Positions 20,335 through 34,226 of a stretch of DNA of 34,921 bases are shown one piece after another. Made by a program: the position numbers and the translations under genes. The DNA lies in the NCBI GenBank assembly GCA_038279365.1, contig JAYODI010000066.1:1-34921 (forward strand), read 5' to 3'. How positions within the stretch are numbered: the first letter of the stretch is position 1; every line of letters starts with the position of its first letter. The DNA comes from Candidatus Latescibacterota bacterium (GTDB lineage: Bacteria > Latescibacterota > UBA2968). The notes beneath the pieces are model-generated. The model ran no database searches. It saw only the letters and a list, made by a program, of their open reading frames with translations, and had not been told where the DNA came from.

Positions 20335-22125
20335 TTATGGTGATTGCAATAGGTTTTCATCGTCGTGTGTGACGTGTAGAAAAACGGTACACATTTCATC
20401 GGTTGATTCTTCTCCCCAACGCACGAGCTTGGGTGGGTTGTTGGGGTTGTTGGGGTTGCTGGCAGAGTTGTCATAATAGGCTTCGAGGGTGATGCGTGTG
20501 CCACGAGGCAGGGCTATGGGTTCTTTAAAGACATAGGTTTCTTGCCAGTTAAAGTCCCAGGGTTTAACCCATACCAAAGGTTTTTGTTCACCTGATGGAT
20601 AGGTGGCGGTTACTTTCATTTCGGTGCCCAGCAAGTGCATGTGTGGCAATATGCTGATGACGTGTTCGTCTTGTGCAATGGTGAGTGATCCGGTGACTTT
20701 GTGGTTTTTGACGCCGGGTGGAATGATGAGCAACCGACTGTTGATAATTTCTTCATACAGGCGTTTCTTTATGGGTTTTTTGGAAAAGTAAATGCCCAAT
20801 TGCGATTGGTCGTTTACGGCGCGACCAATTTTGTGATAATGGATTTGAAGCACAATGTCACTGCCAGCAGGCAAATGACGGCCCACACCTTCTGGCAAGA
20901 TAACGGGTGTGTTGCCCGGTGCCCAACCGCCTAAGGCTTCATATAAGGGTACACCAATGCCACCAAAACTGGGATATCCTACTTCGGGTGCCAAATCTTG
21001 TAGCATGCGGGCTTTGCCCGATACGTCTACATAAACGCTGACATGGTGCACCACTTCACGTTCGTCGGGTAAGAGTTCTATGGCGGAGACAAATTGGTCT
21101 TGGGTGAGGTTGGTGGGCAACACAAAACATCGGTATTCATCGCGACCAATGGCTTCTACAGGATAAGCGGATTCGGGCTTAAGGATGAGATCGGGTTCAC
21201 CCAGTGTCCAACTGTTGGGAAAGTGAATGGGCTTGGGTGCTTGTTCGGGTTTGCCTTCGGGCATACTGGCTTCAACCCACTTCCCAAAGGTGGCTATTTC
21301 TTTGTCTGACAAACGACGTGAATGTTTAAATTCGCCATAACCGGGTTGCACTTTCCAAGGTGGCATAATGCGCGTTTCAATGGAGTCGCGCATTTGATGT
21401 GCCCAAGCCAGTACTTCCATATAATCAAAAAATGCGGCCCGTCCTATACCTCCAGGGCGGTGACAGGTTTGACACCGTTTTTGCAAAAAAGGGACAATGT
21501 CGCGATAAAATGTGGGCGTATCTGCCGTGATGTGAGAGGGTGTTTGTGGTTGTCGTCTGATTTCACATCCAAAGCTGGGGATGTTGGTTTGGGCAATTTC
21601 TTTATTCGCAAGCAAGGCGTCTAAAGCATCCCAAAGCCCACGTGAAGTGGTGTTTTCGGCAACACCCCATCCATTGTCAATTTCTCCGCGGTATCTCAGG
21701 GTGTGGTTTTGGTCAAATAAAAAGGCTTGGGGGGTGTGTGTGGCACCCAATTGATCTGCCAAGCTGTTGTTGGGGTCGCGATAGATGGGAAAGGGGACGG
21801 GGTTGTTTTGGTAGTGTTTTTTAAGGGCATCATTGGTTTCATTAAAGTTGGCATTAATGGCTACAATGCGCACACCCTTTGGACCATAGGTGTTGTGGAT
21901 TTGGGTTTGATGAATGTGATATTTAAGTGAGGCGGGGCAAACGATGGAATTGAAGACGAGAATCAGCGCGCGGTCATAGGTGAGATCTGAAAGGGCAATG
22001 GGAGTGCCGTCTAAATGGGTGAGTGACACGGCGGTCAATTTGTCACCTATTTCTAACGGTGCGGCTTGCAATGAAGCATATGCAAGCGTGAGGAATGTTA
22101 AGAGCGCAAACAATCGGGTTGCCAT
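20335..22125 (-). CDS. Secreted redoxin (AhpC/TSA) + monohaem c + copper type II ascorbate-dependent monooxygenase-like fusion
   Basis: Signal peptide; CPAS redoxin motif, ATHTPQAF, YRGEIDN, FGCEI; CQTCH haem motif; Cu ligand motifs VVHH, IHYH, PHMH, DEMC. GGAGG RBS before ATG 22125. Confidence 0.87.
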   Translation of the reverse strand: MATRLFALLTFLTLAYASLQAAPLEIGDKLTAVSLTHLDGTPIALSDLTYDRALILVFNSIVCPASLKYHIHQTQIHNTYGPKGVRIVAINANFNETNDALKKHYQNNPVPFPIYRDPNNSLADQLGATHTPQAFLFDQNHTLRYRGEIDNGWGVAENTTSRGLWDALDALLANKEIAQTNIPSFGCEIRRQPQTPSHITADTPTFYRDIVPFLQKRCQTCHRPGGIGRAAFFDYMEVLAWAHQMRDSIETRIMPPWKVQPGYGEFKHSRRLSDKEIATFGKWVEASMPEGKPEQAPKPIHFPNSWTLGEPDLILKPESAYPVEAIGRDEYRCFVLPTNLTQDQFVSAIELLPDEREVVHHVSVYVDVSGKARMLQDLAPEVGYPSFGGIGVPLYEALGGWAPGNTPVILPEGVGRHLPAGSDIVLQIHYHKIGRAVNDQSQLGIYFSKKPIKKRLYEEIINSRLLIIPPGVKNHKVTGSLTIAQDEHVISILPHMHLLGTEMKVTATYPSGEQKPLVWVKPWDFNWQETYVFKEPIALPRGTRITLEAYYDNSASNPNNPNNPPKLVRWGEESTDEMCTVFLHVTHDDENLLQSP

Positions 22126-22140
22126 GAGCACCTCCAAGTT

Positions 22141-22857
22141 TTATGTGTTGCGCTTGCGAAGAAAGTCGATGAGAAAAGCCAAGGTAATGAGCCCCAAAAA
22201 AGCTGCGATGGAAACCACAATCCAATGACTTTCTTGGGGCAATCGCCAATATTGAACACCCACCAGAATGAGCGATGGCACAAAAAAGATAAGCGCCCCA
22301 AAGAGGGCATACGCTGCTTGATTGGCAGAGGGCAATGGGATTTCTGTGGGCTGAGATGTTTGGGGCGGGTTTTGTGTGGGTTGAATTTTGGGTGGGGTGG
22401 GGGCCATTTCTATGGGTTTGACATCGACTAGCATATTGATCACATCTTTGCGATATGCATTGTCGGCGGCATAATAGATGGTCCAAAATGCGTTAATTTC
22501 TTCGGCACCTACTTTGGTAAATTTTTTTTCGATATCTTGTTGTCTGTCTGCTGGCAGTGTTTCAACGGGATTGTCTTGGTTTTGTTTGAGGTCTTCTAAG
22601 ATTTGAGCCATGCTGGCGTCATAGCCATGGATCCAAGGAAAAGTGGCGTGTTGCAACAGTTTTTCATTTGGGTGTGCAGATGTAAATTCTTTGATATAAG
22701 CATCTGTGAGTTTTTTGCGCCCGATTTGTGGGCCTGCACCCGGAAAGTATTTGGCACGCAACTGATTGTTGTTTTTAAAGGGCAAATCGAGATGGTTGCG
22801 ATCTGCAATTTTTAGGATGCGTTGAAACGCTTCTGTGAGTGTTTTTCTGTCTGTCAT
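22141..22857 (-). CDS. Hypothetical protein with P/Q/T-rich linker and two C-terminal TM helices
   Basis: 238 aa ORF; linker PTPPKIQPTQNPPQTSQPT; two hydrophobic segments followed by RKR. Confidence 0.7.
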   Translation of the reverse strand: MTDRKTLTEAFQRILKIADRNHLDLPFKNNNQLRAKYFPGAGPQIGRKKLTDAYIKEFTSAHPNEKLLQHATFPWIHGYDASMAQILEDLKQNQDNPVETLPADRQQDIEKKFTKVGAEEINAFWTIYYAADNAYRKDVINMLVDVKPIEMAPTPPKIQPTQNPPQTSQPTEIPLPSANQAAYALFGALIFFVPSLILVGVQYWRLPQESHWIVVSIAAFLGLITLAFLIDFLRKRNT

Positions 22858-22938
22858 AAATTAAAGAGGTGGTAAGAGGTGGATATGAGTAAATGAATGT
22901 GCGTAAAATAAACCGCAAATATATCTGAAGAGCAATAA

Positions 22939-22976
22939 TAAAAAGGACGGGTATTCTCAAGGGAGAATACCCGTTT
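22939..22976 (-). terminator. Rho-independent terminator after the selenoprotein gene
   Basis: Perfect 12 bp stem ACGGGTATTCTC-aagg-GAGAATACCCGT (22947-22974), followed on the - strand by CCTTTTT. Confidence 0.85.
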
Positions 22977-23028
22977 CAGTTTTCATGTTTAAGCATACGG
23001 ATCAATTTTCACAATACACGTATATGGG

Positions 23029-24336
23029 TTAATTGACAGATTTTCCGAAAGACTGTGCAAATGCCAAAAAGTCTGGGAAATCAACCGTGCCATTGTCATT
23101 GAGATCGTATAGCGGGTCATTGGCACCAAAAGCACGGGCAAAGCCGAGAAAATCTGGAAAGTCGATGGTACCTGATCCGTCAAAATCGGCACGTGGGTTG
23201 GCAGGGATAAAGATTGCCGTACCTGATAAACTGATATTAAGTGTGCCTTTTGCTGGGTCATCTGAGACAATGTTGATGGTGCCAGATAATGTGCTTTCTG
23301 TTTTTGGGGTGTAGGTGATGGTGATGTCTTTAGATGCACCAGCTGCAACCGTAAATTGTTTGGTTGAAATGCTGATGTCGGTCAAGGTGGTGGTGACGTT
23401 AGACACATTCAAAACACCTGGCCCATCATTGCGAATGGTGATGGTTTTTTGTACAGATTTGTTGAGTTCTGTTTGACCAAAGCTGATGCTTTCTTGCCCC
23501 AAAACAATATTCGGTGAAACTTTGCCCTCTATGGTGAGTTGTAGAATGGGCATTTGCAACTTATCAACCGCTGGATTGTTGTGGTTGAGTTCAATGGTAC
23601 CCGAAAATGTGCCTGGTTGTGTGGGCGTCAAGATGATTTTGACTGTTTTGGTTTCGTTTTTAGCAACAGTAAATGTCGCAGGTTCAATGACCACATCTTT
23701 GGGTGCGGTATAGCCTGTTATTTCAAGTGGACCATCGCCTGTATTGGCAACATTGAGATTCACGGTTTTGGATTCTCCCGCGTTGGCTTTGGTGCCAAAA
23801 TAAACCTGACGCAGAGAGAGGGCAATGACGGGGTTTTGATTGAGCAAGGCATCAACCATTTGGTTGACTTTGTAATAATTGTCGGTACCAGCGGCGTTGA
23901 TCCAAAGGCGAACAACACGATCTTGATCCAGCACAACAATGTCTTCTAAGCGTGCACCGGCATAATCGGTGCCATTGGATGCTTGGCGAAGCATGGGTAC
24001 TGTTACACCTGTAAACTGACGATAAGATTCTGCCTGTATAGGTGTGCCATTATATGTGTCGAGAACCATAATTTGTACATTGCTTTTGCTGCTGTTGGGT
24101 TGCACAATACCCGATTGGAAGAAGGGGCCCGCCCCTTGACAAACTGCTCAGTTGTAGCCGACAAAAAAAAGTACCGATACTTTTCCGGCGGCATTTTTGG
24201 TGCCGTGAAATTTTCCTTCTGTGCTTTGCAATTCAAACTCAGGCATTTTTTCACCCACACGTGGTTGTGCATGTGCTTGTGTGGTCAGGCCGATGCAAGC
24301 AGCGGTGATGAGTGAAAGTAATATCCATCTTCTCAT
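23029..24336 (-). CDS. Secreted selenoprotein (435 aa): signal peptide + UxxC redoxin + two Ig-like (ASH/choice-of-anchor-D-like) domains + paired EF-hand/dockerin-like C-terminus
   Basis: ORFs 24148-24336 and 23029-24105 are in the same frame, separated only by TGA 24150-24148; read-through gives LFFVGYN-U-AVC-QGAGPFFQSGIVQPN. SECIS-like hairpin follows. GGAGG RBS before ATG 24336. Confidence 0.88.
24122..24137 (-). promoter_or_regulatory. Putative bacterial SECIS element
   Basis: mRNA UGA-GCAGUUUGUC-AAGGGG-CGGG-CCCCUU: a 6 bp stem starting 10 nt after the UGA with a G-rich apical loop. Confidence 0.7.
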
Positions 24337-24714
24337 GATAAAGCCTCCCCAGGTGGTCTTTTAATACGTGTGTTTTGCAAGCAATAACATTTGTTTTGAT
24401 GGCAACAAATCTACTAAATAATCATGATGTCTATCATAAAGACATCAGAGAAATAAACATGTCCAATAGGGTTTTGCAGGTGCTAAAGGGTTGTTTTTAT
24501 AGAAATATGATATTTAAAGATACATTCCTAATGGTATCTCATGCAAATATCGTTCTCAATGCGCATAAAAATAAAAAATCATGTCTTTCGGTTTTCAAAA
24601 TGGCACCAGGCTTTGGGCTTGATTTCGGTGATCTGATTCTCTACATTGTATTACCCAATCCCAGCGTTACTACAACGCTTGAACCGCTATTTCTGTTCCA
24701 TTTGTGAATAATCT

Positions 24715-25950
24715 ATGTCATTATCCCCCAATCATTTTGATGCACTGATGCAACGTGCCATCACCTTGCGCGACACGGGTCACTTTGAGGCAGCATTGGC
24801 CGATTTTAATCAGGCCATTGCATCTGATGGTCACCAAGCTGAGGCATTTGTGCATCGGGGCATTGCATATGGGCAGATGGGGCGTTTCGATGCGGCATTG
24901 GCCGATTTGAATCGCGCAGTGACTCTTGCCCCCGAAAATGTGTGGGTATGGATGCATCGGGCGATTGCTTGTGGTTTGATGGGTCACTTTGATGAGGCCA
25001 TCAACAGCTTTAACCAGGCTCTTGTTTTAGACCCCAACGATACACAGGTGTTGGCCAGTCGGGGTGAAACGTTGCGGGAAATGAGACGTTATGACGAGGC
25101 CTTGGTAGACTTTAACCGTGTGATTGCGTTGGATAATGGGTATTTGGGTGCGTGGATCAACCGAGGGCATACATATATTCAATTGGGCCAATTGGATGAT
25201 GCGTTGGCTGATTTTCAATATGTTTTACAAGTGTCAGAAGGGCATCCCAATGCTTTGTTGGGGCAAGGTGAAGTTTGTCGTCGTCAAGGGCGTTTCGATG
25301 AGGCACGGGTGGCTTTTTCAAATGTTTTGAAACGCGTGCCCGAACATGTTGGCGCGCTCATTGGGCGGGGAGAGACGCATCGACAAATGGGACAACATCA
25401 AGCCGCTTTAGCCGATTTTGATCAGGTTTTGGCATTGCAGCCCAACCGGATTGATGCGTTGGCGGGGCGGGGCACAACGGTTGCCGAATTGGGCCGGTTT
25501 GATGAGGCCATTGCCAACTTTAAACGTGCAGCAGAGCTGGCCCCCCAAGATGGGGATGTGTGGGCTGGATTAGGCGATGTTTTGCGGCAAGCTGGGCGCT
25601 TGCATGAGGCTGTCACGGCATTTTCTCGTGCGTTGGCGTTAATGCCCAATAATTTTTGGGCATTATTAGGGCGTGGGGTTTCTTTGAGAATGGATCATGA
25701 CTTAGAAGCGGCCCTGGATGATTTTGAAGCGGCATTAAAATTGAATGACCGCGATGCTTGGGTGTGGACACACAAAGGTGAAACCTTGCGCCAGTTAGGG
25801 CGTTATGACGCGGCTGTTGCCGATTTTACAAAGGCATTGGCTTTGGACAATGATTTTGTTTGGGCATTGGAATGTCGCAGTGAAAGTTATCGTCAAATGG
25901 GGCGTTTTGTTGAGGCGCTTGACGATATGAATCGGGTGAAGGCACTATGA
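24715..25950 (+). CDS. All-TPR protein (~12 repeats)
   Basis: Regular 34 aa units (A...RG......G..D.A.ADF..A..L.P); ATGA overlap with the YcaO gene. Confidence 0.92.
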   Translation: MSLSPNHFDALMQRAITLRDTGHFEAALADFNQAIASDGHQAEAFVHRGIAYGQMGRFDAALADLNRAVTLAPENVWVWMHRAIACGLMGHFDEAINSFNQALVLDPNDTQVLASRGETLREMRRYDEALVDFNRVIALDNGYLGAWINRGHTYIQLGQLDDALADFQYVLQVSEGHPNALLGQGEVCRRQGRFDEARVAFSNVLKRVPEHVGALIGRGETHRQMGQHQAALADFDQVLALQPNRIDALAGRGTTVAELGRFDEAIANFKRAAELAPQDGDVWAGLGDVLRQAGRLHEAVTAFSRALALMPNNFWALLGRGVSLRMDHDLEAALDDFEAALKLNDRDAWVWTHKGETLRQLGRYDAAVADFTKALALDNDFVWALECRSESYRQMGRFVEALDDMNRVKAL

Positions 25951-26957
25951 ACGATGTCGGTAAGATTGTAAATGCAGATCGCACAGTGCCATTTGCCAAA
26001 ACGATTTCTCGATTTGGTGAAGCCCTCAAAAAAAAGAGTCGATTTTGTACGCGGGCACGCCATTTTTACAATACGATTTGGATTGCCGATTGTTATACAG
26101 ACTATGTTCAAGCTGCTTTGTTTCGAAAATATGAAGGCCCATTAAGAGAAGGTATTGCCTTGCGCACAATGGGTAAGGGGCTTTCTAAGTCTCAGGTGTT
26201 GGCCGGTGCGATGGCCGAAGCTGTGGAGCGCATTTCTTTTTTTGATGCGCTGGCGACTGGGCGCCATACTCCCATTTATGAGCTGACACCCGATGTGGAA
26301 TTGGTTCCTACACAGTTAAAAGCATCAGAAATACCTCATCTCAATGATTCTGCCAACGGTGTTTCGGCGGGTAATACAGTTTTGGAGTGTGTGTTTCATG
26401 GTTTGTTGGAGATGCACGAACATTTGGATGTGGGATTGCATTTCCCGTTTCCAGGGTTGGCACATCGGCAGTTTATCGACCCCACTCTGACGGGGTTTGC
26501 GCCTCATGTTGCCAAGCGCATGTTGGCCGTGGCCGCACCGGGAGAAAATGAAAAAGTGACCACTGTTCATGCGGTGGTTTGCCCAAAAGATTTGGGTCCT
26601 TTGGTGCGCACCTGCACACACTTAGATGGGCGCATTGCCTTACAACGTGCTTTTAATGAGACAGTGCAAAGTCACAAAACCCGATATGCATCTGATTTAC
26701 AAATGTTTGGCCCAGAAATTTCTCTGTGGGATTTGCCCAATCATTTTACTGATGACTTGAAAAAGGACATCCAAGTGGTTTTAAGTGGCATGAAAGAACC
26801 TGTTTATGTTCAAGATTGGACCGATCCTGATATGCAAATTCCCGTATTTCGCCCATTTAGCTCCAAAACGGTTGCTCAAAAAAGAGACCATGTTGTGATT
26901 GAAACTTATGTACAACGCATTATGGCGGAGGCCGAAAATTATATTGTCTGGGAGTAG
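25947..26957 (+). CDS. YcaO-family ATP-dependent backbone amide-activating enzyme (compact, 336 aa)
   Basis: MGKGLSKSQVLAGAMAEAVER, SANGVSAGNTVLECVFHGLLEMHEH, ALQRAFNETVQS and DWTDPDMQIPVFRP match the YcaO motifs in order. Confidence 0.85.
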   Translation: MNDVGKIVNADRTVPFAKTISRFGEALKKKSRFCTRARHFYNTIWIADCYTDYVQAALFRKYEGPLREGIALRTMGKGLSKSQVLAGAMAEAVERISFFDALATGRHTPIYELTPDVELVPTQLKASEIPHLNDSANGVSAGNTVLECVFHGLLEMHEHLDVGLHFPFPGLAHRQFIDPTLTGFAPHVAKRMLAVAAPGENEKVTTVHAVVCPKDLGPLVRTCTHLDGRIALQRAFNETVQSHKTRYASDLQMFGPEISLWDLPNHFTDDLKKDIQVVLSGMKEPVYVQDWTDPDMQIPVFRPFSSKTVAQKRDHVVIETYVQRIMAEAENYIVWE

Positions 26958-27016
26958 TTCATTTTAACCAAGGTGTTGTGGTGTGGTGCCGGGGATATCA
27001 AGAGGAGGGCTTGATC

Positions 27017-27871
27017 ATGCCGGAACTAAGACGTCTGTGGTTTGGTGGATGTGTGATGGTGTTGGTTGCTTGCGGGCAAGTAGAAAAAACAACAGGTCCA
27101 GATATTGTGATTGAAGAGTCAACGATCACAACACCTGCGGGAAGTGAACATATTCAAGTTTTTGTGCCAGGGGGTGCATTTGAAATGGGTAACCCCGATG
27201 GACCTGATAATGAGCGTCCATTACACGAAGTGGCATTGGATGCATTTTATATTGATAAATACGAGGTGACCAATGCACAATATTTGGCCTATGCGGAAGT
27301 CACGGGTGTTGGAAAACCTCAGTTTATTCGCGAAAAAGCGTTTAATCAACCCGATCAACCTGTTGTGGGCATTCTTTGGAGTCAGGCGCGTGATTATTGT
27401 GATTGGGCAGGTTTGAAATTGCCATCCGAAGCGCAGTGGGAAAAGGCCGCCAGTGGAACCGATGGGCGTATTTACCCTTGGGGGAATGAGGCTACGGTAA
27501 CCCAACAGGGCAACTTTAATTTTAGCTCAGGACCAACGGCGGTGGGGAGTTTTCCTGAAGGTGCAAGCCCTTATGGGGCACACGATATGGCGGGCAATGT
27601 GTGGGAGTGGACGTTGGATGAATATGAACATACTTATTATAGCCATAGCCCTGTAACCAATCCCATCAATTTGAAAAATTCGGGCCTGAATGATGGGCCA
27701 GATCGCACATTGCGCGGTGGGGGATGGTTTTCATCATTGCAAAATGTACGTGTGTCCGTACGCAGTTCCATTTATTTAATGGATGCACAATACGAGCAAA
27801 ACCCAGATATGGACAATGTCTTGATGTTTGCACGCATTGGCTTTCGTTGTGTGAGAAATATTTCGAATTGA
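27017..27871 (+). CDS. FGE-sulfatase (SUMF1/EgtB/PvdO-type) domain lipoprotein
   Basis: Lipobox LVAC; PGGAFEMG, NERPLHEV, YEVTNAQY, LPSEAQWEKAA, DMAGNVWEW, RGGGW, IGFRC. GAGGAGG RBS before ATG 27017. Confidence 0.9.
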   Translation: MPELRRLWFGGCVMVLVACGQVEKTTGPDIVIEESTITTPAGSEHIQVFVPGGAFEMGNPDGPDNERPLHEVALDAFYIDKYEVTNAQYLAYAEVTGVGKPQFIREKAFNQPDQPVVGILWSQARDYCDWAGLKLPSEAQWEKAASGTDGRIYPWGNEATVTQQGNFNFSSGPTAVGSFPEGASPYGAHDMAGNVWEWTLDEYEHTYYSHSPVTNPINLKNSGLNDGPDRTLRGGGWFSSLQNVRVSVRSSIYLMDAQYEQNPDMDNVLMFARIGFRCVRNISN

Positions 27872-27877
27872 GGCCCA

Positions 27878-30184
27878 ATGTTTTCTAATAATGTGCGCCT
27901 GCTATTGGCGTTGGTGACCGTTGCTCTTGCCGGGGCAGCGGTCTACCTATATGTGTCATTACAAGCACCTGATGTGGCTGAGGTGAGTCAAAAAGAAAAT
28001 ACCCATGTTTTGGCATCTGAAGGGTATGCGGGTGCGGAAAGCTGTCGAGAATGTCACCAGTCGGATTTTTCAGTTTGGGAAAAATCGGCTCATGCTCATG
28101 CGATGGCCATTGCATCGCCAAACACGGTGCAGGGTGATTTTTTGCGTGATACCACACATACATTTGACGGACAATCATATCGCATGTTTGTGCGTGGTGA
28201 TCGATATTTTATAGAAGCCCCCAATAAAGACGGTATACCTGAGGTATTTGATGTCGATTATGTTTTGGGGGCACGCCAACACGAAAACTATTTGACGCGT
28301 TTTGCCGATGGCCGTATGCAAATGTTGCCTGTTTATTATGATCTTAATCAGAAACGGTGGTTTGATTCGGCAGAGGGCACATTGGAGTTGGGTAAGGCGT
28401 TGCATTCTGGAGATTATTATTTTTGGGCCAATCATGGGCGCACGTGGAACAAACGGTGTTTTGATTGCCATGCTTCACAAATGCGAAAGAACTACGATTT
28501 AAACACCGATACATATGATACGGTTGTTGGCGATTTGAGCATTAATTGTGAAGCATGTCATGGTCCAGGTGCAGCACATATTCAATTTTGGCGTGATGCC
28601 GGCCAAGATCCCAATTTGGCAGCACAAGGTGATCGCTCTTTACCCGATTTGAGTGCTTTAAGTGCCAAGCAACAAGTTGAAAATTGCGCACAATGTCATG
28701 CGCTTAAGGCGGTGTTGCGGTCTGGATATACACCGGGTGCTGATTATCAAAATTTTTACGAGCCATTTCTCATTGATTCACCCGAGTTTTTTTGGCCCGA
28801 TGGGCTGTCTAAAAAGTTGGCGTATCCGTATTTACAGTTTGCAAGCAGTGGTTGTTTTTTAAAGGCGGGGCTTACGTGTAATGGATGCCATGCCACACAT
28901 GGCAGTGATTTGAAGGCCGAGTTGGTAGCCGACCCGGGTGGGGTGGGGTTGTGCGCACGCTGTCATCCTGAAGTGGCGGCCAATGTGAATGCACACACGC
29001 ATCACAAACCCACAGGCCCTGGGGGCAATTGCAATGTGTGTCATTTGCCCAAGCAATTTCGCAATCAGTTGGATATGACCGATCACCGCATTACTGTGCC
29101 TGTGCCAGAAAATACGGTGAAGTTAAATATTCCCAATGCGTGTAATCAAAGTGGGTGTCATGTGGATCAATCGGCACAATGGGCATCTGATTGGGCGCGT
29201 ACTTGGTATGGTGATTATCAACAAGATCGGGTGGCAAGGGCAGATGCCATTCATCGTGGTCGTGAAGGCGATGTGTCTGCTGTTCCTGCATTGTTGGCGA
29301 TGCTACAAGCTGAAGAGACTGCACCGCTTTTACGCGCTGGTTTGGTAGAAATTTTGGGCAAATTGGGTGATCGGCGTGCATTGCCACAGCTTGTTGTGGC
29401 CCTTGAAGACAGTCATTCGGCTGTGCGTGCACAGTCATCGGCGGCGTTGGGGCGTGTCGGACATCCGTTGGCCATACGCCCATTGGTGAAGGCATTGTCT
29501 GATAGTGTTTTTTCTGTGCGTATTCGTGCGGCATATGCATTGGCACTGTTGGATTATGTGCCTCAAGAGACACATAAAAAGATCTATGAAGATGCACTTG
29601 ATGCATTCGTTTCGGTTGTGACAGGCAAGGGCATGATGGCAGATGACGCCCATATGCATTTGAATGTGGGGCAAATTTACGAGTTTCGAAAAAGCTTTGA
29701 TACAGCCTTAGAACACTACAGGCATGCATTGGGTTTTTTGCCGGGGTTGGTAGAGGCTCAAAATCGAACCCAGCGCTTGTTAGAAGCCGAAGCGCGGTAT
29801 CAAAAATTGGTATCGTTGGTGAGCCCTGTGGTAGAACGCGATGTTCGTGCACAAGTGGCACTGGGTTTGGCTTATGTGCACAGAGGAAAAACAAAGGAAG
29901 GGATTGTTTTGCTCAATCAGGCGATATCGGCAGGGGTGCGTTCTGATATTGTTGAAACAGGTTTGGGCGATGCCTATCGTTGGTTGGGTCAGTTTGATCA
30001 GGCACAACAACATTATGAACAAGCATTGCAACTGATGGATACCACACCGGGAGCGCATCGGGGTATGGCTTTGTTGATGTATGCACGTGGTGAAGATGAA
30101 CGTGGAGGAACCCATTGGTTGCATTTTGAAAAAGCTCAACAGGGCGGAGAGGCGCGGGTGCGGGAATTGATGGGAGAAAATTAA
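27878..30184 (+). CDS. Multihaem cytochrome c (7 CxxCH + 1 CX4CH) with HEAT and TPR repeats
   Basis: N-terminal signal/anchor; CRECH, CFDCH, CEACH, CAQCH, CNGCH, CARCH, CNVCH, CNQSGCH; HEAT-like VRAQSSAALGRVG; TPRs at the C-terminus. Confidence 0.9.
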   Translation: MFSNNVRLLLALVTVALAGAAVYLYVSLQAPDVAEVSQKENTHVLASEGYAGAESCRECHQSDFSVWEKSAHAHAMAIASPNTVQGDFLRDTTHTFDGQSYRMFVRGDRYFIEAPNKDGIPEVFDVDYVLGARQHENYLTRFADGRMQMLPVYYDLNQKRWFDSAEGTLELGKALHSGDYYFWANHGRTWNKRCFDCHASQMRKNYDLNTDTYDTVVGDLSINCEACHGPGAAHIQFWRDAGQDPNLAAQGDRSLPDLSALSAKQQVENCAQCHALKAVLRSGYTPGADYQNFYEPFLIDSPEFFWPDGLSKKLAYPYLQFASSGCFLKAGLTCNGCHATHGSDLKAELVADPGGVGLCARCHPEVAANVNAHTHHKPTGPGGNCNVCHLPKQFRNQLDMTDHRITVPVPENTVKLNIPNACNQSGCHVDQSAQWASDWARTWYGDYQQDRVARADAIHRGREGDVSAVPALLAMLQAEETAPLLRAGLVEILGKLGDRRALPQLVVALEDSHSAVRAQSSAALGRVGHPLAIRPLVKALSDSVFSVRIRAAYALALLDYVPQETHKKIYEDALDAFVSVVTGKGMMADDAHMHLNVGQIYEFRKSFDTALEHYRHALGFLPGLVEAQNRTQRLLEAEARYQKLVSLVSPVVERDVRAQVALGLAYVHRGKTKEGIVLLNQAISAGVRSDIVETGLGDAYRWLGQFDQAQQHYEQALQLMDTTPGAHRGMALLMYARGEDERGGTHWLHFEKAQQGGEARVRELMGEN

Positions 30185-30186
30185 AC

Positions 30187-33009
30187 GTGGATAAACGTGA
30201 GATGGCAAAAGGCAAATGGCAAATCTGGTGCTGCTGTTATATCCGTGGGTGCTTTCGGAGCTTATTGGGTTTGGGGTTTTTGTTGGCTTGTTTCTTAACC
30301 TTGATCGGTTGTGGTGCCAAGTCCGATGTGCCCGATTTGGTACGGGCATCAGAGCCAGGGTTTACGGGTGTGGAACGGTGTGCCGAATGTCATACCAATA
30401 ACTTTGCCGAGTGGAAACGCAGTTTGCATGGTTTGGCCATGACGGTGCCCACCGATTCTACTGTGGTGGGCGATTTTAATAATGCCTCACATAGCTATGG
30501 GGGTGTGACCAGTAAAATGTATCGGCGCGATGGTAAGTTTTATATGCAAACACCCGATGCCGATGGGCAAGTGAGAGAATTTCAGGTAGACTATACCATT
30601 GGTATGCGACAACACCAAGCCTATGTCACACGGTTTCCCGATGGGCGTTATCAGGTCTTGCCATTGTATCATGATGGGGCCACAAACGCTTGGGTAGATG
30701 CCCAAGAGGGTGGGGTGGTTGCCCAACATCATCCTTTAAAAAAGGATGATTATTACTACTGGACCAATGCAGGCAGAACGTGGAATTTTCACTGTTTTGA
30801 TTGTCATGCCAGCCGTGTTCAAAAGCATTATGATGTGGATTCGGATACATATCGCAGTTCGGTAGGCAACTTGGCCATTGATTGTGAAGCCTGTCATGGC
30901 CCCTCGGCCAAACACGACGAAACGCGTGGGCAACCTGGGGCACCGATGCATCAATTGGCTTTGCGGTTGTTAGATAAAGAACATGCTGTTGAAGTGTGCA
31001 CGCAATGCCATGCTGCCAAAGAAATATTGGCTGAAGGATATTTACCAGGTGAAAATTATTATGACCATTATCAACTGATATTACCCGATGATAAACGTTT
31101 TTTCTACCCCGATGGCCAGCCTCGGGTTTATATCTATCCGGGGGCATTGCATTTGATGAGTCCGTGTTTTGTGAATGATGATTTGCGTTGTACGACTTGT
31201 CATGATTCACATGGTTCCAAATTGGGTGTAGACTTGGTGGCCAATCGGGAAGGCGTGGGGTTGTGTGAGAAATGCCATGTGGATATTACAGAAAATCCTG
31301 TGGCACATGGGCACCATAAACCGGGTAGCAAAGGCAACCAATGTGTGCAATGCCACATGCCTTATCATTATGTAACGGGTGAAAATTTAACAGATCACCG
31401 CATTGTTTCACCGGTTCCCGAAAATACGGTTGTCAATGGGGTACCCAACTCTTGCAATCAAAGTGGTTGTCATGCAGATCAATCGGCGCAATGGGCCTCG
31501 TTGTGGGCATCAAAATGGTATGGCAATTATCAAGAGGATGAGGTGAAACGCACCACGGCGATTGCTTTGGCGCAAAAAGGCGATAAGCGTGCCGTAAACG
31601 ATTTGGTCGATATGCTAAAAGATGGCAGTTCGGTGTGGCGAGCCACTGCTGCGGGGTTGTTGGGTGGTTTGGGTGATGTGCGTGTGGTTCCACATTTGAT
31701 TCAAGCTATGGCAGATGATCATGCGATGGTGCGTATGAAGGCGACGGTTTCTTTGGGCCGTTTGGGTGATGTGCGCGCCCTGCCGTCGCTGATTTTGGCA
31801 TTGTCTGACTCTGCGCGATTGATACGGATTCAAGCCCCTTTTGCATTGATGGATTTGGGATATCTTGATCAAACGAGTGATGCTTTCCAAAAAGCTTTGG
31901 CCGAACACCGTGAGGTGGTGGCCAGTGTACAAAGTGATGATCCGGGCTATCACGAAAGTTTGGGGCAAGTCTATGAGCGACAGGGTCAATTTGATGCGGC
32001 ACAACGCGAGTTTCAAATTGTGGCAAAGTTAGATCCAAATCACCCTGAAACAATGAAAGATTTGGCCCGATTAAAAAAAGAGCACGATCTATTTGCTCAG
32101 ATGAAACTACACTTTGCCAAAGATGGGTTGGCTCTGTTGCAGGCTGTTGCTTTTTTGAAATATGGCCATTATGAAGAAGCACTTAAAATTTTAGAAAAAC
32201 AGTCGGGCACATCGGCTATTTTTTGGACCATATTGGGAAATGCACATTGGGGGATGGGCCACCGCAACAAGGCATTGGATGCTTATTTGCGAGCAATAGA
32301 TGTCGAGCCAACGTTTCGACCTGCAGTGAAACGGTTGGTGCAAATGGCTTTTTCTGAACCTCAGGTAAGTGGAGGAGATGATGTGTACGATGTGTTGTCG
32401 GCGAAACAATGGGTAGAGCAAGCGATTGTGGCTGTGCGTCAAAAAGATTGGAAAAATGCACGGCTGTATTTTGGCGCGGCATTAGATGGCGAAGCAGAAG
32501 GTGATACATCATTTGGTTTGGGAGATGCGGCTTTTTCATCCATTAGGGTTTTGTCAGACTCTTTGTTTGCGGCTGGTGGTACGGCTTATGAACAGGGTGA
32601 TTTAGATGCTGCAGTGTCGGCCTATATGCAGGTTATAAAAGTGGATTCGGAACGAACGGATGCTTATACTTTGTTGGGTTTGATTCGGGCCGATCAAGGT
32701 GCGTCTTCACACGCCAAACAATATCTTTTTGATGCATTAATGGTAGATGTGGCTTATGTACCTGCATTGTCTATTTTGGGTAGTGTGTTTCAAGAAGGTC
32801 AAAATTTAGATACGGCATTGGCTTTGTATCGGCAAGCTTGGGCTTTGGAGCCTACAGCATCTGGGGTGGAGTTGTTTATGGGGCAGGTTTATTTGATGCA
32901 AGGCAATCGAGACAGTGCGCGTGTGGTGCTGTCACGTGTGGTTCAGCGTGAGCCTAATAATTCGCAAGCACGAGAACTTTTGAATGAAGCTGGAGGTCAG
33001 GAGCTGTGA
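30187..33009 (+). CDS. Paralogous multihaem cytochrome c (7 CxxCH + 1 CX4CH) lipoprotein with HEAT and extended TPR repeats
   Basis: Lipobox LIGC; CAECH, CFDCH, CEACH, CTQCH, CTTCH, CEKCH, CVQCH, CNQSGCH; colinear with the upstream gene. Exact start uncertain (30187 or 30202). Confidence 0.9.
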   Translation: MDKREMAKGKWQIWCCCYIRGCFRSLLGLGFLLACFLTLIGCGAKSDVPDLVRASEPGFTGVERCAECHTNNFAEWKRSLHGLAMTVPTDSTVVGDFNNASHSYGGVTSKMYRRDGKFYMQTPDADGQVREFQVDYTIGMRQHQAYVTRFPDGRYQVLPLYHDGATNAWVDAQEGGVVAQHHPLKKDDYYYWTNAGRTWNFHCFDCHASRVQKHYDVDSDTYRSSVGNLAIDCEACHGPSAKHDETRGQPGAPMHQLALRLLDKEHAVEVCTQCHAAKEILAEGYLPGENYYDHYQLILPDDKRFFYPDGQPRVYIYPGALHLMSPCFVNDDLRCTTCHDSHGSKLGVDLVANREGVGLCEKCHVDITENPVAHGHHKPGSKGNQCVQCHMPYHYVTGENLTDHRIVSPVPENTVVNGVPNSCNQSGCHADQSAQWASLWASKWYGNYQEDEVKRTTAIALAQKGDKRAVNDLVDMLKDGSSVWRATAAGLLGGLGDVRVVPHLIQAMADDHAMVRMKATVSLGRLGDVRALPSLILALSDSARLIRIQAPFALMDLGYLDQTSDAFQKALAEHREVVASVQSDDPGYHESLGQVYERQGQFDAAQREFQIVAKLDPNHPETMKDLARLKKEHDLFAQMKLHFAKDGLALLQAVAFLKYGHYEEALKILEKQSGTSAIFWTILGNAHWGMGHRNKALDAYLRAIDVEPTFRPAVKRLVQMAFSEPQVSGGDDVYDVLSAKQWVEQAIVAVRQKDWKNARLYFGAALDGEAEGDTSFGLGDAAFSSIRVLSDSLFAAGGTAYEQGDLDAAVSAYMQVIKVDSERTDAYTLLGLIRADQGASSHAKQYLFDALMVDVAYVPALSILGSVFQEGQNLDTALALYRQAWALEPTASGVELFMGQVYLMQGNRDSARVVLSRVVQREPNNSQARELLNEAGGQEL

Positions 33010-34226
33010 TGGGGGCTATGCGGTTTATGCGATATGCGGGTGTTGGGGTATTGATTTTAATTGTTGCCTTTGGGGCATTTTGGTTGCTGCATCCAACGGG
33101 TGGTGTGGTGGTAAAAAGGCTTGCGGAACGACCAGCCTTTTTGTGGCGTATCAGTGGTGAAAAATCTTGTGAAGGATGCCATTTGAAAATTGATCCAGGC
33201 ATGGACAAACAATGGCGTGAAAGTGTGCATTATCGCGTGAATGTTGGATGTGCAGATTGTCATGGCAGCGATCATGAAGCTGTCTTTGCAGACAAGGGGA
33301 AGGTTTCGGCTGGGGTGTGTGGCAAGTGTCATGAAAAAGAAGTCACTGCTTTTGCAAAGAGTGGTCATGCCGATGCTGAGGTGGCCATTCTTTCGGATGC
33401 ACGATTTTTGGCTCAATCGGCAGCCATGCAAGAAGAAGGGTGTGTGGGGTGCCATAAATTGGGCGCGCGTTTTGCCGATGGCAGTGTGGGCGGATGTAAT
33501 GCGTGCCATCCTGGGCATGAATTTAGCTCGGCTATGGCTCGCGAACCCGAAGCATGCCAAGTGTGCCACGGTGGACCCGATCACCCTGTGATGGAAGCAT
33601 ATAAAACAAGTGTGCATGGGGTGTTGTATTATCACGATAGAGATCCTGAAAAATCGCCCAGCTGTGTGACGTGTCATATGCCCAATGGTGAGCATGGTCA
33701 TGTGGCAAATATTGGTTTGGGTGCTGTATTTACGGGCGCAGTATTGGAAGATGAATATTTACCTCATTTGGCCATGAAACGACTGAGCAAAGAAACCTTT
33801 GAGGCCAATCGCAAAGAGATGCTCAATGCTTGTGCGCCATGTCATTCTGCACGTTTTGCACGTGAGAGTTTGGAACGTGCCGATGCCATCAAACGCGAGG
33901 CCGATGCCATTGTGGCCGAAGGGTATACGATTATCAAATCGCTTTATGATGAAAAAGCTTTAGATCCCATGCCAGAAAATCGTCCAGCAAATCCTGTGGT
34001 TGGGCATGTGCTTGAATTGGGTGGGCAACAATTGTATGAAAACACCTCAGAAATTGAACAAGCATTTTTTAGATTGTTTAAGTTTTATCATGCAACCACA
34101 TTTAAAGCGGCCTATCATCATTCACCCGACTACACACATTGGGAAGGCATTGTGCCAATGAAGATGGAGATTGATAAGATACGGTCAGAAGCCAAACGGT
34201 TGCGTTTGATGGCAAAAATAAAATAA
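33006..34226 (+). CDS. Octahaem cytochrome c of the hydroxylamine oxidoreductase (HAO) family
   Basis: Eight CxxCH (CEGCH, CADCH, CGKCH, CVGCH, CNACH, CQVCH, CVTCH, CAPCH); HAO-type HEFS..AREPEACQVCHGGPDHP, YKTSVHG, HHSPDYTHWEG; N-terminal TM anchor. Confidence 0.87.
   Translation: MMGAMRFMRYAGVGVLILIVAFGAFWLLHPTGGVVVKRLAERPAFLWRISGEKSCEGCHLKIDPGMDKQWRESVHYRVNVGCADCHGSDHEAVFADKGKVSAGVCGKCHEKEVTAFAKSGHADAEVAILSDARFLAQSAAMQEEGCVGCHKLGARFADGSVGGCNACHPGHEFSSAMAREPEACQVCHGGPDHPVMEAYKTSVHGVLYYHDRDPEKSPSCVTCHMPNGEHGHVANIGLGAVFTGAVLEDEYLPHLAMKRLSKETFEANRKEMLNACAPCHSARFARESLERADAIKREADAIVAEGYTIIKSLYDEKALDPMPENRPANPVVGHVLELGGQQLYENTSEIEQAFFRLFKFYHATTFKAAYHHSPDYTHWEGIVPMKMEIDKIRSEAKRLRLMAKIK

Follow-up and report, generated by a model that had tools for sequence, protein, structure and literature searches.

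Among the described selenoproteins, the closest to the protein analysed here are of a peroxiredoxin-like kind. In the portion available to us, a 2026 review of the prokaryotic selenoproteome (PMC13188914) lists 119 families in its Table 1, and peroxiredoxin-like thiol:disulfide oxidoreductases of Pfam family PF00578, with selenocysteine (Sec, U) in a UxxC or UxxU motif, are already catalogued there. A thioredoxin-like protein at the cell surface has also been described: according to the accessible part of PMC2907840, HBP35 of Porphyromonas gingivalis is a surface protein that combines a thioredoxin-like motif with a C-terminal domain of the surface export or attachment kind. Here we analyse a 34,921-nucleotide stretch of Candidatus Latescibacterota DNA (contig JAYODI010000066.1, positions 1 to 34,921, hereafter the window). 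Positions 23029 to 24336, on the reverse strand, probably form one gene for a 435-residue exported selenoprotein in which UGA codon 63 is read as selenocysteine, a reading to which we give a probability of about 0.87. It would join a redoxin of the known kind to Ig-like domains and a dockerin-type tail.

The reading frame and its conserved UGA codon

Translation table 11 divides the gene into two open reading frames (ORFs) of 62 and 358 codons, which share a frame and are separated by a single TGA at codon 63. The 14 codons that follow it (24147 to 24106) are open and lead into the GTG of the second ORF. When the TGA is read as U, one product of 435 amino acids (aa) results, with U63 in the context VLFFVGYN-U-AVC-QGAGP. 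The features of the gene are the following.

23029..24336, reverse strand: whole gene of 435 codons, ended by TAA and interrupted by a single in-frame UGA (ORF reading; orthologues align over residues 1-435)
24148..24336, reverse strand: 62-aa ORF (table 11 list)
23029..24105, reverse strand: 358-aa ORF with a GTG start (table 11 list)
24148..24150, reverse strand: UGA codon 63, first position of the UxxC motif, putatively read as selenocysteine (alignment with the CxxC of 2ls5, ResA and Cys paralogues)
24139..24141, reverse strand: Cys66 codon, candidate resolving partner in UxxC (alignment of N-domains)
24344..24350, reverse strand: Shine-Dalgarno-like GGGGAGG, 7 nt before the ATG (read from the sequence)
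22947..22974, reverse strand: terminator-like hairpin of the intrinsic type with a T-run, 55 nt past the stop (sequence)

Because this hairpin and T-run follow the stop, the gene looks monocistronic. An initial annotation of the DNA had proposed that both ORFs are in frame with only a TGA as interruption, that the open codons join it to the second ORF, that the TGA stands at the first Cys position of a thioredoxin-fold motif and that standard annotation would fragment the gene. All four proposals held. The database entries that we saw are either rare Cys forms or the piece after the TGA, which is 317-371 aa long and is called hypothetical or 'choice-of-anchor D domain-containing protein'.

We searched 41 related genomes in six frames for homologues of the gene. 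Members of the same genus gave full-length matches interrupted by one TGA at 76% and 70% identity, and such matches also came from further genera of the family and from a second family. The loci that were fetched, whose choice favoured TGA forms, gave 52 motif matches, comprising 1 false match, 47 distinct TGA forms and 4 Cys forms. In all 47 TGA forms the TGA occupies the U position of G-[YHFW]-x-U-x-x-C, the first of the redox motif, and both flanks are conserved. We then extended the search to 168 species genomes of the phylum. At E<=1e-8, the redoxin domain was present in 70 of them, at 110 listed places (a hand count from the phylum table), and a TGA was found in 103 of these. Exactly one TGA lies inside the match at 102 places and one TGA plus one TAG at another; one place has a single TAA, and the remaining 6 have no stop, although one of these matches does not reach the motif. 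Contigs assembled from DNA in two independent studies, X5 (22900-24237) and X9 (23884-24204), span the TGA unchanged, so that sequencing error is excluded as its source.

At the column of U63, homologues carry either the TGA or Cys, and Trp in none of them. A paralogue encoded in this genome, G000:C43, is 46% identical and has Cys, as do G002:C22 and the database proteins P0013, P0016 and P0017; in the alignment, the rows with Cys are L046, L047 and these three proteins. Cys66 is invariant in the 23 aligned N-domains. Three relatives (P0042, P0048 and P0049) have lost the redox pair, with Asn at position 63 and Ser replacing Cys66 (GYI-N-DT-S). These full-length proteins retain the Ig domains and dockerin tail; presumably they have no catalytic activity. 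Between two and four members of the family form tandem arrays at L052 (G036:C1:5119000-5124000), G023:C1:3281003-3285114 and L055 (G027); in the G036 array, one Cys form is flanked by two Sec forms.

On a maximum-likelihood tree of 57 N-domains, drawn with a midpoint root for display only, Cys forms stand at three places, and the labels require three changes for Cys and one for the redox-dead state. G000:C43 lies in a Cys clade whose sister group (support 100/99) is a 25-row Sec clade containing the window gene, and nearly every deep branch of this tree, which has no outgroup, carries Sec. For that reason, an ancestral Sec followed by Sec-to-Cys replacements appears to be the simpler reading, subject to the missing outgroup root and to a sampling that favoured TGA forms.

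The downstream hairpin and the selenocysteine machinery

Sec insertion in bacteria depends on a selenocysteine insertion sequence (SECIS), for which the available part of PMC13188914 gives a model in which the loop has 3-9 nt and the upper stem 4-16 bp, the first two positions of the loop include a G, the UGA-to-loop spacing is 16-37 nt and the energy is -7.5 kcal/mol or lower. A hairpin of this kind follows UGA63.

24122..24137, reverse strand: SECIS-like hairpin AAGGGG-CGGG-CCCCUU, with a 6-bp stem and the loop CGGG at 24131-24128 (sequence and folding)

As the initial annotation had claimed, the hairpin starts 10 nt past the UGA. Its loop (CGGG), its stem of 6 bp, its UGA-to-loop distance of 16 nt and its energy of -8.5 kcal/mol agree with all four constraints as far as the review states them, which supports the bacterial Sec signature that had been proposed. 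With contiguous stems only, 35 of the 47 Sec forms likewise satisfy the four. The hairpin varies among the 47, occurring in 23 sequences whose loops include GGUC, CGGGU and GUC.

The hairpin is built of the codons for Q-G-A-G-P-F (Q67-F72), a peptide that is also conserved in Cys forms. To separate the RNA from the peptide, each gene was recoded synonymously 500 times with its own codon usage. The window hairpin (-8.5 kcal/mol) is more stable than the mean of its recodings (-1.7 kcal/mol, p = 0.024). Over the Sec forms, p was below 0.05 in 36 of 47 and below 0.2 in 44 of 47; among the 4 Cys forms it was below 0.05 in none, with a median of 0.555, and two of them had no hairpin at all. This computation shows that the hairpin is under selection beyond the constraint imposed by the peptide.

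A check of the genome for Sec machinery, as the initial annotation had advised, found every component. A tRNA-Sec scores 68 bits, with the anticodon tca according to ARAGORN, and selA (592 bits), selB (379 bits) and selD (367 bits) all exceed their curated cut-offs. The genome is 98.5% complete, and the four genes cluster within 6 kb on contig C34.

G000:C34:31069-36920: Sec cluster (loci L009, L014, L022 and L001)

The selD gene contains one in-frame TGA and is probably itself a selenoprotein gene. Across the phylum, selA was found in 131 of the 168 genomes and in 68 of the 70 that hold the redoxin family.

The predicted product and competing explanations

The 435-aa product contains the domains announced by the initial annotation, a UxxC redoxin and two Ig-like domains, between a signal-peptide-like N-terminus and a C-terminal module.

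24268..24336, reverse strand: signal-peptide-like N-terminus, residues 1-23, MRR plus hydrophobic core plus AHA|Q (sequence)
23812..24264, reverse strand: TlpA/ResA-like thioredoxin-fold redoxin domain, residues 25-175 (profile, Foldseek)
23527..23826, reverse strand: Ig-like domain 1, residues about 171-270, choice-of-anchor D / ASH type (profiles, model, Foldseek)
23212..23511, reverse strand: Ig-like domain 2, residues about 276-375, choice-of-anchor D / ASH type (profiles, model, Foldseek)
23032..23211, reverse strand: dockerin-fold module of two Ca-loop plus helix repeats (DFDGSGTIDFPDF..., DLNDNGTVDFPDF...) (profile, model, Foldseek)

Homologues repeat the N-terminal pattern, with A-x-A ending before QP. 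A lipoprotein reading of Cys14 was ruled out, this residue not being conserved. The AlphaFold (AF2) model of the whole protein, computed from a 19-row alignment, has a mean predicted local distance difference test score (pLDDT) of 86.2 and a predicted template-modelling score (pTM) of 0.42, a low value that fits an arrangement of beads on a string. In the model, a strand (53-59) leads to U63 and C66 and the helix 64-81, a block with pLDDT 85-95. Foldseek comparisons of the redoxin domain gave TMt values of 0.75-0.82 (2ls5, 0.79; ResA, 0.82), and phmmer placed U63 opposite the first Cys of WCGVC and WCKPC, the CxxC motifs of 2ls5 and ResA. Against the PDB, the family profile matched 2ls5 at 4.4e-19 and ResA at about 1e-10, and chains of the peroxiredoxin type only at about 1e-4. 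The nearly invariant P114 aligns with the Pro of GVTYP in 2ls5 and is a candidate for the cis-proline loop that faces the active site. In Pfam, the isolated domain scores 28.1 for AhpC-TSA (PF00578; cut-off 26) and 24 for Redoxin (PF08534; cut-off 26.6), for which the full-length protein scores 21. AhpC-TSA matches 22 and Redoxin 18 of 23 family members at E<=1e-3. The model and these comparisons indicate that the fold is that of a TlpA/ResA-like thiol-disulfide oxidoreductase rather than of a peroxiredoxin. Thus the AhpC/TSA-like assignment of the initial annotation stands for the thioredoxin fold with UxxC and for the PF00578 match, and gives way in that the closest kinship is with TlpA/ResA.

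The Ig-like domains show matches of the ASH, HYDIN and DUF1573 types, and the choice-of-anchor D model NF012200 scores 87.9 bits (cut-off 45) over two stretches; their number in homologues varies from zero to three. The tail had been called EF-hand/dockerin-like, which proved right as to a duplicated Ca-binding module and can now be refined. A profile built from 19 tails matched 2y3n_B, a dockerin, along the entire module (2e-11), and the AF2 model of the tail (pLDDT 93) has helices at 23-32 and 50-59. In Foldseek, ranks 1-13 are all dockerins (best TMq 0.76), calmodulins reaching a TM of at most 0.31. The tail also passes the EF-hand_1 cut-off (31.4 against 25.4). On the modelled structure, the last 60 residues are a dockerin fold and not merely an EF-hand. 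The genome holds 38 matches to the tail module and 13 cohesin matches over the Pfam cut-off. One of its genes, L096 904-1947 on the reverse strand (G000:C196), encodes a protein of 347 aa that combines a signal peptide and two cohesins with this same type of dockerin tail and could therefore self-assemble. At L098 (G000:C1), a protein with a classical dockerin and a T9SS-like tail (T9SS, type IX secretion system) adjoins a cohesin protein. The genome thus seems to encode dockerins of two types.

To place the redoxin in its wider family, we searched 1.84 billion representative proteins with the profile. Matches numbered 23,440 at E<=0.001, of which 1,354 reached E<=1e-10 and 74 reached E<=1e-30. 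Most of the 150 best-scoring ones have a CxxC motif and a length of about 255-265 aa. A public protein search confined to residues 25-175 added nothing to the first one. The T9SS type A sorting domain (TIGR04183) is over its cut-off in all four Cys relatives checked, and an ad hoc model of the tail found a T9SS-tail-like C-terminus in 89 of the 150 best relatives and a dockerin-like tail in 2. Judging from these sequences, members of the redoxin family repeatedly carry modules that serve export to the cell surface or attachment there. Two to five tandem CxxC redoxin domains occur in P0071, P0073 and P0088, which reach 1280 aa and in some cases also carry a T9SS tail. Since its Cys relatives bear T9SS sorting tails, an extracellular role can be argued for the selenoprotein, and by this analogy it would be exported and located at the surface.

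These elements suggest the following mechanism. The complex of SelB and tRNA-Sec would decode UGA63 as selenocysteine, guided by the stem-loop of the Q67-F72 codons 16 nt downstream. Sec63 and Cys66, at the start of the first helix, would constitute a selenol/thiol redox pair, and the mature protein would act as a thiol-disulfide (selenenylsulfide) oxidoreductase. The redoxin would be carried on the two Ig-like spacer domains, and the C-terminal calcium-type dockerin would most likely plug into cohesin-bearing proteins encoded elsewhere in the genome. We infer the direction of the redox reaction and the substrates.

Several points weigh against this reading as a whole. We infer Sec insertion at UGA63 from computation, and the docking of the tail to cohesins is a prediction; the tail stays under the dockerin cut-offs (Dockerin_1, 16.4 against 22.9; dockerin_GC, 24.5 against 29), and in the full-length protein AhpC-TSA, at 25.5, is just below its cut-off of 26. 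As for the hairpin, 12 of the 47 Sec forms miss at least one strict SECIS constraint when only contiguous stems are allowed. One Cys form also forms a hairpin at this place (-7.9 kcal/mol, p = 0.108), the G-A-G-P codons are GC-rich, the controls comprise only 4 Cys forms with DNA, and many of the Sec forms are close kin. Folded whole, the 66-nt stretch has z = +1.25, with 184 of 200 shuffles at least as stable. The window gene had z = -0.07 (p = 0.44) in the synonymous test on total minimum free energy, in which the Sec forms averaged z = -1.42 and only 16 of 47 had p<0.05. On the codon-register alignment, RNAalifold found a weak and differing consensus with 0 compensatory pairs; this consensus is not useful because the register of the hairpin shifts by 1-3 nt between subfamilies. 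The selA gene was not found in two genomes with TGA forms, G020 (91% complete, 430 contigs) and G082 (80% complete, 820 contigs), both fragmented assemblies. Finally, contigs X6 and X16 from RNA libraries cover parts of the gene and neither bridges the TGA; X6 (23777-24170) extends only 20 nt past it, which by the search rule is not bridging, and DNA can occur in RNA libraries.

Among the competing explanations, the one that survives best accepts the selenoprotein and makes it a periplasmic reductase of the ResA/TlpA/CcmG type, serving for instance cytochrome c maturation and re-reduced by the single membrane protein of the DsbD/CcdA type, with a tail that is no surface anchor. ResA is indeed among the closest solved relatives, the genome has one DsbD_TM gene, and the window contains multihaem cytochrome genes at a distance of 3.5-10 kb. 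Yet neither the window nor two paralogue loci show linkage to ccm, res or dsbD genes, and the gene is apparently monocistronic. The fusion of the domain to Ig spacers and a dockerin-fold tail, and the T9SS-type tails of so many of its best Cys relatives, also speak for the surface; we therefore consider a periplasmic reductase unlikely.

A second possibility is an exported selenoprotein whose chief task is to scavenge peroxide or other oxidants, as a peroxiredoxin or glutathione peroxidase does. Selenols react fast with peroxides, and the Pfam match is to AhpC/TSA. This role nevertheless appears improbable for a protein whose motif aligns with the CxxC of ResA and 2ls5, and whose matches to peroxiredoxin-type PDB entries are so far weaker than that to 2ls5 (about 1e-4 against 4e-19). 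Moreover, the accessible part of Table 1 in PMC13188914 lists peroxiredoxin selenoproteins with TxxU, not UxxC.

Two further explanations dispense with selenocysteine. When selenium is scarce, misreading of UGA as Cys or Trp can in principle occur, and the codon might be decoded by near-cognate read-through of this kind, or through a variant code as Trp or Gly. TGA is, however, an ordinary stop in 6 of the 21 long ORFs of the window and in several homologues of the gene, for which reason a variant genetic code is excluded as far as the sequences go. The stop-free homologues have Cys at the column, not Trp or Gly, and the full Sec machinery and the SECIS-like hairpin are present, which leaves decoding as another amino acid very improbable. 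Lastly, a true stop, whether in a pseudogene, through an assembly error or between a peptide of 62 aa and a protein of 358 aa whose translation restarts at GTG 24105, accords with the two ORFs of table 11 and with public gene calls that show only the downstream piece, and is hardly credible when the same TGA recurs in 47 distinct homologues from four families of the phylum and in independent DNA contigs, protein conservation runs unbroken across it, the predicted thioredoxin fold spans the break and the Cys paralogues are uninterrupted.

Neighbouring genes and relation to known systems

Around the selenoprotein gene, the order redoxin-Cu-monooxygenase, unknown, selenoprotein gene, TPR, YcaO-like and FGE-like is kept in G012 and G015, and is absent in G029, in G003 and at the paralogue loci. 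The idea that these genes are functional operon partners was rejected on this ground, the distribution fitting relatedness instead. On one side, 20335-22137 (reverse strand) encodes a 600-aa exported protein that combines a redoxin (VCPAS, CxxS-like) and the haem motif CQTCH (CxxCH) with a copper type II monooxygenase C-terminal domain; this fusion adjoins the selenoprotein gene in G012 and G015 as well (69-70% identity). Between the two lies 22141-22857 (reverse strand), encoding a 238-aa protein with a hydrophobic C-terminus and no Pfam or NCBIfam match, which is 56-59% identical in the same position in G012 and G015. On the other side, downstream of the TPR protein, 25947-27871 (forward strand) encodes a short YcaO-like protein (336 aa) and then an FGE-sulfatase-like protein, a pair with 61-82% identity in G012 and G015. 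Three successive multihaem cytochrome genes follow at 27878-34226 (forward strand); two of the products, of 768 and 940 aa, also contain fused HEAT and TPR repeats, and the remaining one (406 aa) is of a seven-haem type.

A broader proposal is that Latescibacterota display a Sec redox enzyme extracellularly on cohesin-dockerin scaffolds, and that Sec is ancestral and strongly preferred in this lineage of surface redoxins. We advance it tentatively, and regard it as doubtful in its entirety. If true, this would be the first dockerin-borne selenoprotein. It may then act beside roughly 37 other dockerin-tagged proteins of the organism, and may reduce or reshuffle disulfide-locked substrates or handle oxidants or chalcogen compounds in sulfidic sediments. 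The gene itself points to redox chemistry that depends on selenium and takes place at the cell surface of uncultured sediment bacteria. Among prokaryotic selenoproteins, its multidomain and tethered architecture is an addition to the list. The predominance of Sec over Cys forms is unusual among thioredoxin-fold families. Since the database entries that we saw are post-TGA fragments or rare Cys forms, the catalytic domain of a protein that the candidate phylum conserves is invisible to standard pipelines, and the family suffers from systematic mis-annotation. The U-containing product supplies a concrete peptide for metaproteome searches.

We found no close precedent for the complete architecture. 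No NCBIfam selenoprotein model reaches its cut-off on the protein. Literature searches returned nothing joining selenoproteins with choice-of-anchor domains or Latescibacteria with dockerin and cohesin, and nothing relevant by title for selenocysteine and dockerin; where selenoprotein and Latescibacteria co-occurred, the terms were unconnected in the portions of text available. By their descriptions, none of the entries in the accessible part of Table 1 of PMC13188914 is named with choice-of-anchor D and dockerin. The initial annotation had not recognised the architecture as that of a characterised selenoprotein. That judgement holds for the architecture, and not for the redox domain, which is of the PF00578 UxxC kind already present in the consulted part of the review. 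From these sequence comparisons, what is new is the tethered arrangement together with the prevalence of Sec forms; the kind of redox domain is known.

Comparison with individual systems makes this clearer. With the PF00578 UxxC selenoproteins, as the extracts of the review present them, the protein shares a thioredoxin fold, a putative Sec in first position of UxxC, Cys homologues and a SECIS-like element directly after the UGA; this likeness is one of Pfam family and motif. TlpA/ResA/CcmG-type proteins (2ls5 of Bacteroides thetaiotaomicron; ResA, 1su9/1st9) resemble it in fold, active-site position and exported N-terminus (TMt 0.79-0.82, profile E 4e-19 to 1e-10). They are Cys-based and single-domain or membrane-anchored, whereas here a putative Sec is combined with Ig spacers and a dockerin tail. 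In DUF1573 / OS_HP2 (PF07610, UGC motif, NF041425), Sec sits in the Ig-type domain itself. The Ig-like domains described here match DUF1573 and are without Sec, which would lie in the redoxin, and their match to NF041425 is weak (25 bits, cut-off 100).

The T9SS-sorted CxxC redoxins (P0082, P0084, P0089 and others) share the GYNCxxC and LDxWNG motifs, with E down to 1e-37, and are also fused to a C-terminal surface export or attachment module. They differ in having Cys, a T9SS sorting tail instead of a dockerin, and no Ig spacers. HBP35 provides a published precedent for a surface thioredoxin-like protein (PMC2907840, in the part accessible to us), likened here by description. Finally, the tail shares with cellulosomal dockerins (2y3n chain B, Bacteroides cellulosolvens) the two Ca-loop plus helix repeats, with a profile E of 2e-11, and cohesins are likewise encoded in this genome. 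It differs from them in remaining below the Dockerin_1 cut-off and in its predicted cargo, which would be a redox selenoprotein and not a glycoside hydrolase.

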